Source: a virus
Lineage: Duplodnaviria; Heunggongvirae; Uroviricota; Caudoviricetes
Virus record (IMG/VR): IMGVR_UViG_2740892233_000023
Length of the DNA stretch: 11,769 bases
Direction: 5' to 3' (one strand)
Positions 1,659 through 8,821 of this stretch are shown one piece after another. Within the stretch, counting starts at the first letter, position 1, and every line of letters starts with the position of its first letter. The notes under the pieces were generated by a model. It worked only from the letters and a program-made list of their open reading frames with translations, had not been told where the DNA came from and did no database searches. The translations under genes were made by a program, and so were the position numbers.

Positions 1659-4600
1659 TTAAGAATCAGCCTGACTCGGGATCAGTTTTTGCCAGATAAC
1701 TGAAACGTATTTTGCCTGGTAACGGGCGTCATCAAGTGCATTATGGCGCTCACCTTCGAATGGAATAGCCGTTCTGGCATCGAAGTCTATGGCTTTCCCC
1801 AGCTCAACGATTGTGCGTACATCGCGATCGTTGTAGTAACGCCACGGGCAGGGGATCCCCTGCCGTTCGTATGAACGGCGCAAAATCGTGTTGTCGAAGT
1901 TGGCTCCATTTCCCCAGACCTGAACAAAAAATTCACCGGAGTTTTCGTCGATAAATTCCCGCAATTGTAACAGTGCATCATCTAACGGGATTTCATCGGT
2001 CATAATGGCAGATTGCGCTTCGCGTGATTGCTTAAGCCACCATTTAATGGTGTCCCGATCAATGACCCCGCCAGCAGTTTCCAGATCGATAGTCTTACTA
2101 AATTCCGGCCCCATATCTCCGGTTTGCGGATCGAAAAATATTGCACCTATTGAGATGATCGGGGCATCAGGATTTTTTCCCATGGTTTCAAGGTCGATCA
2201 TTAGATGGTCACACGTCCTGCNNNNNNNNNNTCCGCCAGCAGTTTCCAGATCGATAGTCTTACTAAATTCCGGTCCCATATCTCCGGTTTGCGGATCGAA
2301 AAATATTGCACCTATTGAGATAATCGGGGCATCAGGATTTTTTCCCATGGTTTCAAGGTCGATCATTAGATGGTCACACGTCCTGCTGGTGGATGTGATT
2401 TCTTGATGACCGTTCACCTTAATTGAGTGATCTGCCGTCTCGCCAGTTTCATTATCGCTATCGTGATGCTGATTGCCGTCAGTGTTCTCCTTGTGTGGAT
2501 GTTCAGCGCCTTCCATTTCCTCCGGATCATCTTCCTGAACTTCAACCTGATACTCTTCATCGAATGTTTCCTGGTATGTTGCGTCGCCCATCACCGCGCC
2601 ACAATCAGGGCAGTTGCCGCNNNNNNNNNNAATGCGATGACCGTTCACCGTAATTAAGGGATCTGCCGTCTCGCCAGTTTCACTATCGCTGGCGTGGTCC
2701 TGAGCGCTGCCAGCATTCTCCTTGTGTGGATGTTCAGCGCCTTCCATTTTCTCCGAATCGTCTTCCTGAACTTCAACCAGGTTCTTGTCATCGAATGTTT
2801 CCTGGTATGTTGCGTCGCCCATCACCGCGCCACAATCAGGGCAGTTGCCGCCGCCGGTCTGACCGCAGGCGGTGCAGACTTTTTCCGGTTCCTGTTGCGC
2901 TACTGGCTCAGGTTGTTTCGTTTCTGGCTCGTTTTGTTGCGTATTTGGGCTGTTTTGTTCCGCTTTCTGGTCGTTCTGTTCCGATTCTTGCTGGTTCTGG
3001 TTTACAGAATCGCGGGTTTCAATCCCCTTTACCCATTTCGGATCATTCGGGTCGCTAATCCCTGCAACAAATTCTCCGCGAGAGGCAGCAAGCAACTTAT
3101 CGGCGTCAGGCTGGCTGATATTGGCTGCCTGCATAATTTTGTTTACTTCGTCAGCGGTAANNNNNNNNNNACTCCTCTGACCGCAGGCGGTGCAGATCTT
3201 TTCCGGTTCCTGTTGCACTACTGGTTCAGGTTGTTTCGTTTCTGGCTCGTTTTGTTGCGTATTTGGGCTGTTCTGTTCCGCTTTCTGGTCGTTCTGTTCC
3301 GTTTCTGGCTGATTCTGGTACACAGAATCGCGGGTCTGGATCCCCTTAATCCATTTCGGATCATTCGGGTCGCTAATCCCTTCAACAAATTCTCCGCGAG
3401 AGGCAGCCAGTAATTTGTCTGCATCGACAGGATTTTGGGGCGGAATGTTTTTCCGGGCTTCATGGAGTTCTGCCCGCAGTTTCTGATATTTCGCATCAAC
3501 AGAATTTACCTGTGACTGAGCATCCAGCGGCTGCGTGTCCTGATGATGTTCAGTTGCATCCGGTTCCACTGTTTCAGCCGTTGCCTGTTCATCTGCCATT
3601 GCGCAAGATGGTTGCGGTTTTTCTTCATCATTTTCTTCTTCTTCTGTTTCCTGCTTAGCAGCCAGTTCGCGGTTAACTTCTTCCAGGATATCTTTTTCCG
3701 GTGTATGTCGTGCAGCAGTGAGAGTTTCCTTGCTGGGGTTCTCGTGATCAGTCTCCGTTAAGTAGGCGTTGATATACCCCTGAAGGCGTCCCGGGTAGTG
3801 ATAAAACTCAGGGTGAGCGCTCCGGATAAGTGCAAAAATAGCGGCGCGGGAATAGTCCAGAATACCCGGGGTTGCGCGAAGTGCTGCGGACCATTCTTTG
3901 AACGGACTTTCTCTTTTCAGGACGATTTCTTTTGCGCGACGATAAACGCTGCCCGGAATTTCATAAATATTAAAATCCATCGGAAGTGTGGCTGCTGCAA
4001 TCTCCACATCCAGCGTATCGAAGGTGTGTACTAAATTCGGATTGCGATCGGTTTTGTTCCCGCCACCGGCATTTGCACCGGAAGCCGTACGGGTGATACG
4101 CGAAACACGATTTCCTTTCATCCACTCTTTTGTCAGCAGACCCCGATCAGTGTAGTCAGCGTCCAGGTATGCCTCGAAAAAAGCAGTTATCAGTCCCAGG
4201 TCTGAATTACCGGGATTAGGGAAAACTTTGTCAGTGTCGCGTGCCAGTTTATGAAGGTCGCGAATCTCCAGCGGGTCGAGCAGCTTTGTGTTGTGGGAAA
4301 TGGCCAGGGCAGTAACAGCCGGCAGTTCTTCCGCCCGTGCTATATGTAATGCCTGAAGTTCTTCCCGTGCAACGTGCGTTACTGGTTTTTCGCTGCCGTG
4401 TTGCGCAAGCCAGCGAATGGGCAGCTCCTGACCAGAAACCGGCAGGAGCATATTCTCCTCAATCTCCGTCATGTCTTCGCCGTTGACGTTGGTATTGTCA
4501 GTACTGGCTGGTTTCTCCTGCACGGAGGGAGAGGGCGCGATAAATACCATTGTAATGCCATCTTCCCCGCCTTTTTCGTATCGGTTGCAGAATTCGGTAT

Positions 4601-4835
4601 CAAACACGCCTTCAGGTGGAAGGTCATTCACAACGGGTAAATGGACGCGAACGGGTTTTTTAAAGTCGTCTTCATCATAATCGTTGTCATCCATTGCGGT
4701 AATGCAGCGGGAGATGGCAACAGATAATTTTTTTGCTGTAGTCCAGTAAAAACCACCTTTAATTCCCAGACGTTTTCTGACTTTGTCATTTTTTGCTTCG
4801 CAATATAGCGCAAATTCTTCTTTATCAGTGCTCAT
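1659..4835 (-). CDS. Prophage exonuclease: RecE (exonuclease VIII) N-terminal-like region fused to a C-terminal DEDDh (DnaQ-like) 3'-5' exonuclease domain; ORF crosses three N10 runs
   Basis: Long minus-strand ORF with GAGG SD 9 nt upstream of ATG at 4835. The N-terminal ~600 aa resemble the non-catalytic N-terminal part of RecE-family proteins (from memory). The C-terminal ~180 aa carry DEDDh motifs: Exo I MIDLETMG, Exo [13 protein letters not shown], Exo [15 protein letters not shown]. Protein length is unreliable because the N10 runs at 2222-2231, 2621-2630 and 3161-3170 are flanked by duplicated sequence; the true protein is probably about 830 aa. Confidence 0.8.
2222..2231. other. N10 gap flanked by ~154-bp near-identical copies (2068-2221 vs 2233-2386, 2 mismatches)
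   Basis: Direct comparison of flanking sequence; the copy offset is 165 bp (a multiple of 3). Confidence 0.95.
2621..2630. other. N10 gap flanked by ~228-bp diverged copies (about 2393-2620 vs 2631-2860, roughly 88 percent identity)
   Basis: Direct comparison of flanking sequence; the copy offset is 231 bp (a multiple of 3). Confidence 0.95.
3161..3170. other. N10 gap flanked by ~270-300-bp diverged copies (about 2861-3160 vs 3171-3440, roughly 92 percent identity; ends diverge)
   Basis: Direct comparison of flanking sequence; the copy offset is 318 bp (a multiple of 3). Confidence 0.95.
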
Positions 4836-5301: not shown

Positions 5302-5470
5302 TATCGCGTCCTCAACAATGAATTTTGTGATGCGGTGCCTGGTGCCTCCAGGTGACGTTAACCAGTTAACAATTAACGCCGGATACAGAGAATCCACCCA
5401 TAACACTGTTTTTGGTTTTAACTGTTCCGCGTGCGCTCAGCCGCATTCACCACATCACAAAATTCACTTT

Positions 5471-5528
5471 AAAAAGGGCGGCAGAGCAGTCACGGAGTAA
5501 AACTGATACCGCCAAACGTCACCAGAAA
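5471..5528 (-). ncRNA. dicF: DicF-like sRNA (copy at end of contig before N-run)
   Basis: Minus-strand sequence TTTCTGGTGACGTTTGGCGGTATCAGTTTTACTCCGTGACTGCTCTGCCGCCCTTTTT matches the remembered 53-nt DicF sRNA followed by a U-run. Located upstream of dicB-like in the same orientation. Confidence 0.7.
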
Positions 5529-5554
5529 ATTGATAACAGAGGGCGTTGCAGCGG

Positions 5555-5564
5555 NNNNNNNNNN
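5555..5564. other. N10 gap; the ~116 bp before it (5439-5554) are repeated after it (5566-5681) with 3 differences
   Basis: Direct comparison of flanking sequence; both copies end at the same point (…cgttgcagcgg) before an N-run. Confidence 0.95.
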
Positions 5565-5597
5565 GAGCCGCATTCACCGCATCACAAAATTCACTTT

Positions 5598-5655
5598 AAA
5601 AAGGGCGGCAGAGCAGCCAAGGAGTAAAACTGATACCGCCAAACGTCACCAGAAA
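5598..5655 (-). ncRNA. dicF: DicF-like sRNA, variant copy (2 substitutions, CCGUGACUG to CCUUGGCUG)
   Basis: Second copy of the DicF-like sequence on the short segment between two N-runs. It may be an allele or paralogue brought in by contig concatenation rather than a second gene in the same genome. Confidence 0.55.
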
Positions 5656-5681
5656 ATTGATAACAGAGGGCGTTGCAGCGG

Positions 5682-5691
5682 NNNNNNNNNN
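5682..5691. other. N10 gap (junction between DicF-containing segment and twin-hairpin/cassette contig)
   Basis: Seen in sequence; no overlap detected across this junction. Confidence 0.95.
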
Positions 5692-5719
5692 AGAAATATC
5701 CTTTCAGTAAACTGTCAGT

Positions 5720-5769
5720 GCCGGATGTTCACCCGTGTCCGGCGCACGCACTCCACTTCACCCGTGGAG
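5720..5769. repeat. Twin GC-rich hairpins each carrying decamer TTCACCCGTG (GCCGGA-loop-TCCGGC and CTCCAC-loop-GTGGAG)
   Basis: Seen in sequence. A second copy at 6703-6752 carries CTCACCCGTG in both positions (the same T to C change in both repeats). No T-run follows. Confidence 0.5.
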
Positions 5770-5801
5770 AACTCCTTAATTACCAACCCTCAGGAGGGTG
5801 A

Positions 5802-6035
5802 ATGTTAAAATCAACTCTTATTGCTAAATGCCTTTATCAAAATCGCATGGTAAGCAGCATTTCAATAGGCGAGTCTGCAGTTAAAAGTATTTTCGAAGAG
5901 TACTTTCCCGGGCATGATTTTAATAAATGGAATACCAAATTACCGCCAGCAGTTTCAACGCGTATTCTGAAAGCAACCGAAAGAGCAAGTACAATTCGCG
6001 TTAACTATTTCATTAAAGATTTGTGGGATCTTTGA
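5802..6035 (+). CDS. Hypothetical protein (77 aa), AT-rich, inside variant-specific cassette
   Basis: Plus-strand ORF with GGAGGG SD 4-5 nt upstream of ATG. It is convergent with the 135-aa minus gene (23-bp 3' overlap) and no competing long ORF lies on the other strand. No recognisable family. Confidence 0.4.
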   Translation: MLKSTLIAKCLYQNRMVSSISIGESAVKSIFEEYFPGHDFNKWNTKLPPAVSTRILKATERASTIRVNYFIKDLWDL

Positions 6036-6420
6036 TATCCACAGAGCCTAAAGTATGTGCATATGGATGTGCTATTATGCGCCCTCGCAGATTTGCATCA
6101 TTTTCTAAATTCACTGAACGAAACAGGGCATCAACAAGGCTCTGTACAATGCAAAGGCAATCGAAGACTGTCGCCGTTTCTGTTTTGATTGATGAAAGAA
6201 CATGGCCATTCACGCAAACAGAAATTACCCGTTTATTAACATCGCTTTCCTGCTTTTGATTATCAGAACCATATAGCCCAGAAAAAGCATTGCGCACATT
6301 ACGAACCATATTATCGATGGTTTCTTTTTCTGCGGTACTAAGGTCAAGAGTAGCCAGTTGTGAACGAACTATATTCGATGCCATTTCCTGTAATGGCGTT
6401 GGTAAATCTTTAAATTCCAT
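6013..6420 (-). CDS. Hypothetical protein (135 aa), AT-rich, inside variant-specific cassette
   Basis: Minus-strand ORF with ATG at 6420 and GAGG SD 8 nt upstream. It follows a truncated ydfC-like 3' end by 22 bp. No TM segments or recognisable motifs. The plus-strand ORF 6023-6259 is treated as its shadow. Confidence 0.55.
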   Translation of the reverse strand: MEFKDLPTPLQEMASNIVRSQLATLDLSTAEKETIDNMVRNVRNAFSGLYGSDNQKQESDVNKRVISVCVNGHVLSSIKTETATVFDCLCIVQSLVDALFRSVNLENDANLRGRIIAHPYAHTLGSVDIKDPTNL

Positions 6421-6442
6421 TATTAGCCTCGTTGGTTAGCTA

Positions 6443-6513
6443 TTAACGTGGGTATGTAATCATTCTGGCAATGCTTAATGCCGCTGCTTTTTCCAGATTG
6501 GTGATATCCTGCT
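6443..6513 (-). CDS. 3' fragment of a ydfC-like gene, truncated by the N-run (variant contig)
   Basis: Near-identical to 6792-6862 (one mismatch in about 85 bp); encodes …ARMITYPR-stop. Only the C-terminal part lies before the N10 run. Confidence 0.4.
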
Positions 6514-6523
6514 NNNNNNNNNN
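6514..6523. other. N10 gap flanked by repeated ~85-bp segment (6429-6513 vs 6777-6862)
   Basis: Direct comparison of flanking sequence. Confidence 0.95.
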
Positions 6524-6702
6524 CTGGGGAAGGAATAACCCCGCCATACTTACCGCCGCGCCATTTCGCGGATTGCCACAACCGGAAGCGCACGGTCGAC
6601 GAAAATTTAACGACAGGCTATCTATGAACCAGCTACCTCGCCGTGCGCTTTCGCGTTATGGTCTGACTTTTCAGGGAAATATCCTTTCAGTAAACTGTCA
6701 GT

Positions 6703-6752
6703 GCCGGATGCTCACCCGTGTCCGGCGCACGCACTCCACCTCACCCGTGGAG
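6703..6752. repeat. Second copy of the twin hairpins (loop decamers CTCACCCGTG)
   Basis: Seen in sequence; lies in the contig variant without the cassette, between the segment upstream of dicF and the ydfC-like gene. Confidence 0.5.
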
Positions 6753-6791
6753 AACTCCTTAATTACCAACCTTAGCTTCGTTGGTTAGCTA

Positions 6792-7010
6792 TTAACGCGG
6801 GTATGTAATCATTCTGGCAATGCTTAATGCCGCTGCTTTTTCCAGATTGGTGATATCCTGCTCCAGAGCGGACAGATTTTCAGCCTGCTTAGCCCTGGCT
6901 TCATTGGCCCATTTCAGGTCCTGCGCTGCCTTAATTTTCTGGTGCATCCACTCATAAAGTTCATCATCGGTATAGTCTGGCGCGATGATGACGGGGTCTC
7001 GTTTCTGCAT
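6792..7010 (-). CDS. YdfC-like small coiled-coil protein (72 aa)
   Basis: Minus-strand ORF with AAGGAG SD 6 nt upstream of ATG at 7010. Its length and its position upstream of dicF/dicB match ydfC of the Qin dicB operon. Family call from synteny and length only. Confidence 0.6.
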   Translation of the reverse strand: MQKRDPVIIAPDYTDDELYEWMHQKIKAAQDLKWANEARAKQAENLSALEQDITNLEKAAALSIARMITYPR

Positions 7011-8022: not shown

Positions 8023-8382
8023 ATGAACATCAAACCTATTCGTACAGAGCAAGATTATGAAGCCGCGTTGCGTGCTGTTGAACCCATGTTCGACAATGAG
8101 CCCGAAATTGACACGCCTGAGGGGGATTTTTTTGAGGTGATGTGTTTGCTAATAGAGGAATATGAAAAAAAACATTATCCCATTGAGCCACCATCCCCAA
8201 TTGAAGCTATAAGATTTCGCATGGAACAGCAGGGGCTGACTGTGAAAGATTTGGAACCCGCAATTGGGAAAAAAAATCGGGTTTATGAGGTGTTGAATGG
8301 TACCAGAAGCCTTACGTTACCAATGATTCGCCGTCTTCATAATCAATTTGGTATCCCCCTGGAAAGCCTGGTTGGATTATAA
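8023..8382 (+). CDS. higA: HigA-family antitoxin (HTH, XRE-type), 119 aa
   Basis: ATG 2 nt after the higB-like stop, with GGAG SD. C-terminal HTH …GLTVKDLEPAIGKKNRVYEVLNGTRSLTLPMIRRLHNQFGI… resembles HigA antitoxins. Confidence 0.75.
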   Translation: MNIKPIRTEQDYEAALRAVEPMFDNEPEIDTPEGDFFEVMCLLIEEYEKKHYPIEPPSPIEAIRFRMEQQGLTVKDLEPAIGKKNRVYEVLNGTRSLTLPMIRRLHNQFGIPLESLVGL

Positions 8383-8398
8383 AATCTGCTAGTCATTT

Positions 8399-8447
8399 GC
8401 CTGATGCTCGTTCCAGAAAAGGAATGCATCAGGCAGTTTTGTTTTTC
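8399..8447 (+). terminator. Intrinsic terminator for the higBA-like transcript (overlaps the 3' end of the repressor gene)
   Basis: Stem GCCTGATGC / GCATCAGGC with inner TTCC/GGAA stem and AGAAAA loop, followed by AGTTTTGTTTTT on the plus strand. Confidence 0.55.
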
Positions 8448-8821
8448 TGCCGCAGTAACTCTTCAAGTTTCCGTTTATAGAAATCGCGTTTTTGCTCCAT
8501 ATCACGAATGATCTGCTCTGCGTCGCTTTGAGGTAACTCATCTAAAAGCGATATGATTTTTCGTTGTTGTTCTGTAAGTTGCGGTTGGTTGTCATTACTG
8601 GATACAGCCATTTTATCGCCGAGAGTTTCTTCTTCCATAAAGAACCAATGGACGGGATGTTGTGAGAGCTCTGCTAATTTTTCCAGTTTATCCATTCTTG
8701 GCATCACGCCTTTCAACCAACCTTGCACGGATTGGGGTTTTACACCAAGACGTCTTCCCAGCTCTGACTGGTTTATATTCAATTCCTGCAACACCTGCTG
8801 AAGGCGTTTTACAAAGATCAT
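8429..8821 (-). CDS. Prophage repressor, DicA/RacR-like (N-terminal HTH, no S24 peptidase domain)
   Basis: Minus-strand ORF; likely start is ATG at 8819-8821 with GAGGGG SD. HTH …NQSELGRRLGVKPQSVQGWLKG… and a C-terminal region resembling the DicA C-terminus (…LPQSDAEQIIRDMEQKRDFYKRKLEELL…). Divergent from a Cro-like gene. Confidence 0.8.
   Translation of the reverse strand: MIFVKRLQQVLQELNINQSELGRRLGVKPQSVQGWLKGVMPRMDKLEKLAELSQHPVHWFFMEEETLGDKMAVSSNDNQPQLTEQQRKIISLLDELPQSDAEQIIRDMEQKRDFYKRKLEELLRQKNKTA

Follow-up and report, generated by a model that had tools for sequence, protein, structure and literature searches.

In-frame duplications in a lambdoid prophage exonuclease gene: very probably an assembly artefact

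Does the exonuclease gene of this prophage contain tandem repeats, or were the repeats introduced when the sequence was assembled? The window, by which we mean the whole stretch of 11,769 nucleotides analysed here, covers the left arm and the immunity region of a lambdoid prophage of Escherichia coli. Apart from the integrase (20-1315) and excisionase (1335-1586) genes it carries a DUF1482 gene, dicB, an HTH repressor gene, YdaS- and YdaT-like genes and a DUF1376/DnaT replication gene. The exonuclease ORF as scaffolded lies on the minus strand at 1659-4835 and comprises 1058 codons, including three runs of N that appear as X in the translation. An earlier note, which was made from the window alone, had left the choice between overlapping allelic contigs that inflate the protein and a gene with diverged in-frame tandem repeats. 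We consider it very likely that the three in-frame duplications are an assembly artefact in which both arms of graph bubbles were kept in series, a reading that rests on sequence comparison.

N10 runs and the origin of the flanking copies

Six runs of exactly 10 N divide the window into seven pieces, c1 to c7. Three of the runs fall inside the exonuclease ORF (join 1, 2222-2231; join 2, 2621-2630; join 3, 3161-3170) and the remaining three outside it (5555-5564, 5682-5691 and 6514-6523). Near-identical copies flank each in-gene run, as the earlier note had described with identities of 99, about 88 and about 92%: we found 98.7% over 154 nt at join 1 (2068-2221 and 2233-2386), 89.8% over 216 nt at join 2 (2405-2620 and 2636-2851) and 91.2% over 250 nt at join 3 (2858-3107 and 3176-3425). 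The copy-to-copy offsets of 165, 231 and 318 bp are indeed all multiples of 3, and the 1058-codon ORF does stay open across the three joins. The excess over the normal gene had been put at about 220 aa, which was too low, as it measures 238 codons (714 nt). An N10 run adjoins all three in-gene duplications and two further ones in the window, and this pattern of near-copies around N10 runs is far beyond chance. No copy-to-copy junction is read through in the window, all three being hidden by N10. A pattern spanning join 1 had no match among the genome contigs or the viral contigs searched.

The pieces were compared column by column with homologous sequence in the window and with reference alleles from closed genomes, namely L001 (NZ_CP148339) and two other alleles, L002 and L003. 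Seven gap-free loci on viral contigs (L004-L006 and L008-L011), recovered by allele-specific patterns, served as added single-copy controls. Pieces c1 and c4 are 99.8-99.9% identical to L001. Piece c2 is 100% L001 over its first 168 nt and of the L003-L006 allele type thereafter, and c3 is 100% L001 over its first 222 nt and of the L002 type thereafter, including a private upstream context. Closed genomes contain c2 (at 99.7%) and c3 (at 98.3%) as single colinear pieces.

This composition assigns a source to each arm. At join 1, arm a (2067-2221) is the 155-nt tail of c1 and ends 64 nt past its last variant, and arm b (2232-2386) is formed by the first 155 nt of c2, is 100% L001 and begins at the first variant base; the two arms differ at 2067, 2109 and 2157, each time at codon position 3. 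At join 2, arm B' (2400-2620), the 221-nt tail of c2, is of the allele type of L003-L006, encodes a stretch bounded by a 14-residue and a 10-residue motif and again ends 64 nt past the last variant. It is followed by arm B (2631-2851), the first 221 nt of c3, which is 100% L001 and begins at the first variant base. At join 3, arm C' (2853-3160), the 308-nt tail of c3, is the L002-type allele of the DADKLL...CTACGQ block, and arm C (3171-3478), the start of c4, is 100% L001 and has the first variant base as its start (codons for RS against TG). Judged by these assignments, the extra copies are evidently fragments of other natural alleles of the exonuclease gene.

Arm C' also carries the upstream context of the L002-type allele, a 17-residue stretch that is native to the DADKLL block in both L002 and L003, whose N-terminal halves belong to a different module family from that of L001. 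The earlier note had remarked that this different context would fit a real internal repeat. That argument does not hold, because the context, followed over 23 residues, is the native single-copy context in the L002/L003 allele family, and it is therefore evidence for a paralogue fragment instead.

Over its 2221 nt, c1 differs from L001 at three positions only (2067, 2109 and 2157), all within the last 155 nt, and there it has the bases of the L004-L006 allele type. The locus may be a natural recombinant, or c1 may have run into the arm of a paralogue at its end.

The runs outside the gene were absent from the earlier note; at two of them the flanks overlap, and the offsets there (127 and 349) are not divisible by 3. 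A fourth duplication (5438-5681) consists of a 117-nt tail of c4, the N10 run at 5555-5564 and the 117 nt of c5, the copies being 96.6% identical (4 mismatches) at the offset of 127. Piece c5 is the version identical to L001, where the region is intergenic and lies downstream of dicB. Both copies end on the same homologous base. The 822-nt piece c6 (5692-6513) has its first base at a variant site and runs on for 64 nt past its last variant; its first 97 nt match c7 at 6675-6771 and its last 110 nt match c7 at 6753-6862. The gap-free locus L006 contains c6 uninterrupted at 100%, with about 634 nt that are absent from c7; c6 is accordingly an arm with an insertion/deletion that derives from another prophage copy, and the scaffold is redundant there. 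Two ORFs, 6423-6593 (minus strand) and 6471-6788 (plus strand), cross the N10 run at 6514-6523.

Graph geometry and the proposed assembly route

The ends of the pieces follow a rule. Each of c2, c3, c4, c5 and c6 begins exactly on a variant base, and c1, c2 and c6 each run on for exactly 64 nt past their last variant. Another rule, that contigs end 2 nt before a variant site, was true for c2 only and was replaced by this one, in which 64 is k-1. Moreover, two stretches that are identical in both versions are written once and shortened. The first, of 77 nt, is represented by 13 nt at 2387-2399, and the second, of 65 nt, by the single nucleotide 2852, which are the numbers of 65-mers that they contain (77-65+1 = 13; 65-65+1 = 1). 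With these nodes the lengths of the pieces add up, c2 to 389 nt (155+13+221) and c3 to 530 nt (221+1+308). Thus, a de Bruijn graph with k=65, its nodes printed without their first k-1 bases, accounts for these boundaries. Two ends depart from the rule. At join 4 (5555-5564), the tail extends 61 nt, not 64 nt, past its last variant, and the two visible versions alone do not explain why c3 ends at 3160. The latter would need a further branch, for instance a third paralogue differing at 3096 or 3161, given that 3160 lies 64 nt past a wobble variant at 3096 or 1 nt before a putative variant at 3161.

We propose the following route. A source genome with at least two diverged copies of the lambdoid-prophage exonuclease gene would give bubbles in a k=65 graph, that is, differing stretches between at least 65 identical bases. 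Instead of picking one arm per bubble, the scaffolder would have laid both in series (a|b, B'|B, C'|C), which would yield the order c1 up to arm a, N10, arm b with the 13-nt node and arm B', N10, arm B with the 1-nt node and arm C', N10, and c4 from arm C onward. As the two arms occupy the same place, the estimated gap is zero or negative and the minimum gap of 10 N is written. The assembler was apparently Velvet-like: Velvet prints nodes without their first k-1 bases and writes gaps below 10 bp as 10 N, and presumably it leaves bubbles of more than 100 bp unmerged, a length that all arms here exceed.

Alternatively, contigs could have been ordered on a reference genome and the overlapping contigs concatenated with a fixed N10 spacer, no paired-read scaffolder being involved. 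All six gaps are exactly 10 N, and the in-gene pieces follow their start coordinates in L001 (6468, 6636 and 6858), both of which such a procedure would produce. However, c6 precedes c7 in the scaffold even though homology puts its start after that of c7, so that simple ordering by reference coordinates fits the three in-gene joins and fails for c6 and c7. We regard reference ordering as unlikely; in any case the piece boundaries are k=65 graph nodes under any ordering tool, and the nature of the feature would be unchanged.

A second question concerns the cell from which the second arms were derived. The exonuclease gene was present in 4,746 of the 5,426 complete E. coli genomes searched, at a median of 2 and a maximum of 9 places per carrier genome, and the copies sit in different lambdoid prophages. 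Since E. coli is haploid, the alleles are most likely paralogues that reside in further lambdoid prophages of that one genome; with such copy numbers the paralogues needed are the usual situation. The same artefact could also arise if the second arms came from a second strain or subpopulation, through mixed culture or contamination; the arms are alternative natural alleles, and the window is silent on their cell of origin. We judge this quite improbable, as multiple copies per genome are the norm and make paralogues the simpler source, and as at least three allele types within 1.4 kb, together with the same behaviour at further prophage positions, are what is expected of a poly-lysogenic, STEC-like genome. 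From these considerations we infer that the second arms derive from paralogous prophages of one genome. Of the two readings in the earlier note, that of overlapping allelic contigs was thus essentially right, with the amendment that the alleles are most likely paralogous prophage copies and that the pieces are nodes of a k=65 graph.

Copy number of the blocks in relatives, and the reading frame

In the best 30 closed E. coli records, the matched place spans 2587 bp where the query has 3301 bp, and the 714 bp that are missing equal 165+231+318. The exonuclease annotated in L001 has 820 aa, and those of L002 and L003 have 823 and 795 aa. When the three were aligned with the translation from the window, each block occurred once in the closed-genome alleles, and the window stood out by three insertions with X runs at their bounds. 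Likewise, the blocks occur once each in the seven gap-free viral-contig loci, and protein length is 815-821 aa in 119 of the 120 nearest clusters. No repeat unit was found more than once in any gap-free member of the family, a statement that covers L001-L003, the seven loci and the nearest protein clusters.

Collapsing the scaffold, by joining c1 to 2387-2399, 2631-2852 and c4 from 3171, gives a gene of 2463 nt for 820 aa, which we take to be the true size of the exonuclease gene. It differs from L001 at 3 nt, all synonymous, and its product matches the L001 protein WP_000102128.1 with 0 aa differences. On 999 contigs there is an identical 820-aa protein, P0002. An alternative path via arm B' of c2 also yields 820 aa, and either B or B' may be the arm that belongs to this locus. 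Relatives and geometry together suggest that each block is single-copy in the source genome.

Longer versions of the exonuclease exist in other draft E. coli assemblies. P0001, P0122, P0123 and P0126 (905, 916, 920 and 852 aa) have in-frame duplications inside the DEDDh domain, with differing breakpoints and on one contig each; in locus L007 (GCA_005381365.1, BDLE01000057.1) the duplication is a perfect 255-nt tandem copy without N at 8050-8559. The longer draft exonucleases may reflect mis-assembly of a conserved segment that exists in several copies, or else private duplication.

The remaining reading holds that the gene truly contains three diverged in-frame tandem duplications which broke the assembly, with units running from RTCDHL through a 12-residue motif to VNGH and from DADKLL to CTACGQ, and that the true protein has about 1050 aa. 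It can point to the ORF that stays open over all three joins, to the divergence of about 10% between the copies of blocks 2 and 3, as in old repeats, and to the singleton proteins of 852-920 aa in other drafts. The last were rejected as precedents, because they duplicate another region, the DEDDh domain, with private breakpoints. The blocks never occur twice in the closed genomes examined or in the nearest protein clusters, and each second copy corresponds to a different natural allele, in one case with its private flank. Real repeats, too, would break a graph at shared 65-mers, yet with arbitrary breakpoints, and pieces that start at the first variant after at least 65 identical nt, with the nodes present once, would amount to a triple coincidence. 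Real duplication would also leave orphan halves of the CxxC-x7/8-CxxC motif (CTACGQ..NCPDCG), as they stand in the translation of the scaffold ORF. The single occurrence of the blocks in closed genomes and in 119 of 120 nearest clusters, and the common 820-aa protein that results from the collapse, speak against the diverged tandem repeats offered by the earlier note, and the units named there are single in the aligned alleles of 820, 823 and 795 aa. Real tandem duplication is hardly credible, and we give next to no credence to its fuller form. In that form the exonuclease would be enlarged to about 1050 aa by in-frame duplication of three adjoining modules, namely the DADKLL-Q/E/N-rich segment, the acidic segment that follows the zinc ribbon and the beginning of the DEDDh domain, with copies captured by recombination from other prophage alleles.

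The earlier note estimated that random scaffold joins would preserve the frame about 1 time in 27. If both arms of each bubble were kept in series, the copy-to-copy offset would equal the distance between first and last variant plus 64, 1 and 10, that is, (last - first) + 75. As 75 is divisible by 3, a first and a last variant at the same codon position suffice to keep the frame. At joins 1 and 2, first and last variants are at codon position 3 and are 90 and 156 nt apart. Join 3 is not a closed bubble, as its L002-type arm diverges entirely. Position 3 accounts for 27 of 56 variants in the codon-position spectrum. Two random variant sites share their phase with p = 0.37, and the value for three joins is about 0.04-0.05, barely above 1/27, so that wobble bias alone does not make three in-frame joins likely. 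The chance argument of the earlier note is softened by the geometry of k=65 and N10 and by the offsets of 127 and 349 at the other joins, which are not multiples of 3. The in-frame outcome is explained mechanistically for joins 1 and 2 and is still partly luck, that at join 3 resting on an unseen branch. Three in-frame joins are weakly improbable and unremarkable, and an unbroken frame over N joins is only weakly indicative of biology.

The 820-aa exonuclease and comparison with known systems

From its N-terminus, the 820-aa protein consists of an Exonuc_VIII-like region, a Q/E/N/P-rich segment, a four-cysteine motif, an acidic segment and a C-terminal DEDDh domain. In Pfam, residues 57-189 match PF06630 (Exonuc_VIII; E = 5.1e-34, 118 bits against a cut-off of 25), and the C-terminal domain matches PF16473/RNase_T, the Rv2179c-like DEDDh 3'-5' exonucleases (E = 2e-67, 226.7 bits against a cut-off of 27), over profile positions 2-177 of 177. 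Residues D643/E645, D743, H793 and D798 are invariant in the alignment, and the motifs DLE, NFD and HNALDD are visible. A PDB search returned 8kel and 8ken as the only solved sequence relatives, with no RecE nuclease structure among the matches.

The gene is strongly modular. The last approximately 190 residues, which form the DEDDh domain, are almost identical across prophage alleles, and the N-terminal approximately 460 residues belong to unrelated-looking families, with PF06630 in the L001 type and not in the L002 and L003 types; in L002-type alleles a Pfam search found it absent. Homology between the allele families resumes exactly at one 13-residue motif, which looks like a recombination joint between prophage modules. 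The four-cysteine motif (CTACGQ-x-NCPDCG, CxxC-x7/8-CxxC; C548-C551 and C559-C562, at about 2830-2880 of the window on the minus strand) sits between the Q/E/N/P-rich and acidic segments and is invariant in all aligned alleles. It resembles a zinc ribbon or knuckle and has no matching family in Pfam.

The duplications are very probably an ordinary artefact of assembly, affecting a prophage gene that is well known, and not a real feature. Their importance is one of data hygiene only, in that an open ORF of 1058 codons with X runs could enter databases as a long, repeat-bearing exonuclease. The geometry of k-mers offers a quick test, independent of reads, by which false duplications can be told from real repeats: the pieces open on a variant base, their tails run k-1 beyond the last variant, and the stretches that are shared have lost k-1. 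The frame is kept by substitutions that share a codon position wherever the sum of k-1, 1 and the gap is divisible by 3.

Among known proteins, the closest counterpart is WP_000102128.1, the 820-aa exonuclease of an E. coli lambdoid prophage, which is the same as the collapsed product and shares with the window a neighbourhood of int, xis, exonuclease, DUF1482 and dicB. Unlike it, the scaffold ORF has 238 added codons. In annotation this protein goes by 'exonuclease', '3'-5' exoribonuclease' and 'exodeoxyribonuclease VIII'. With RecE (exonuclease VIII of the Rac prophage) it has in common the PF06630 N-terminal region and the same place in the early left operon of lambdoid prophages. By contrast, its catalytic domain is of the DEDDh type (PF16473), and the likeness to RecE is probably confined to the N-terminal region. 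The earlier assignment to the RecE family is therefore apt for the N-terminal PF06630 match and apparently not for the catalytic domain, a DEDDh 3'-5' exonuclease; the PDB matches do not include a solved RecE structure.

As an assembly product, the scaffold resembles the false duplications that arise from unresolved de Bruijn bubbles, the class of 'haplotig' duplications of diploid assemblies. There, too, both arms are kept in series, and arms of equal length, a minimum N gap and boundaries tied to variants and to k-1 are found as they are here. 'Haplotig' duplications stem from haplotypes, whereas those of the present window most likely stem from paralogous prophage genes of a haploid genome.
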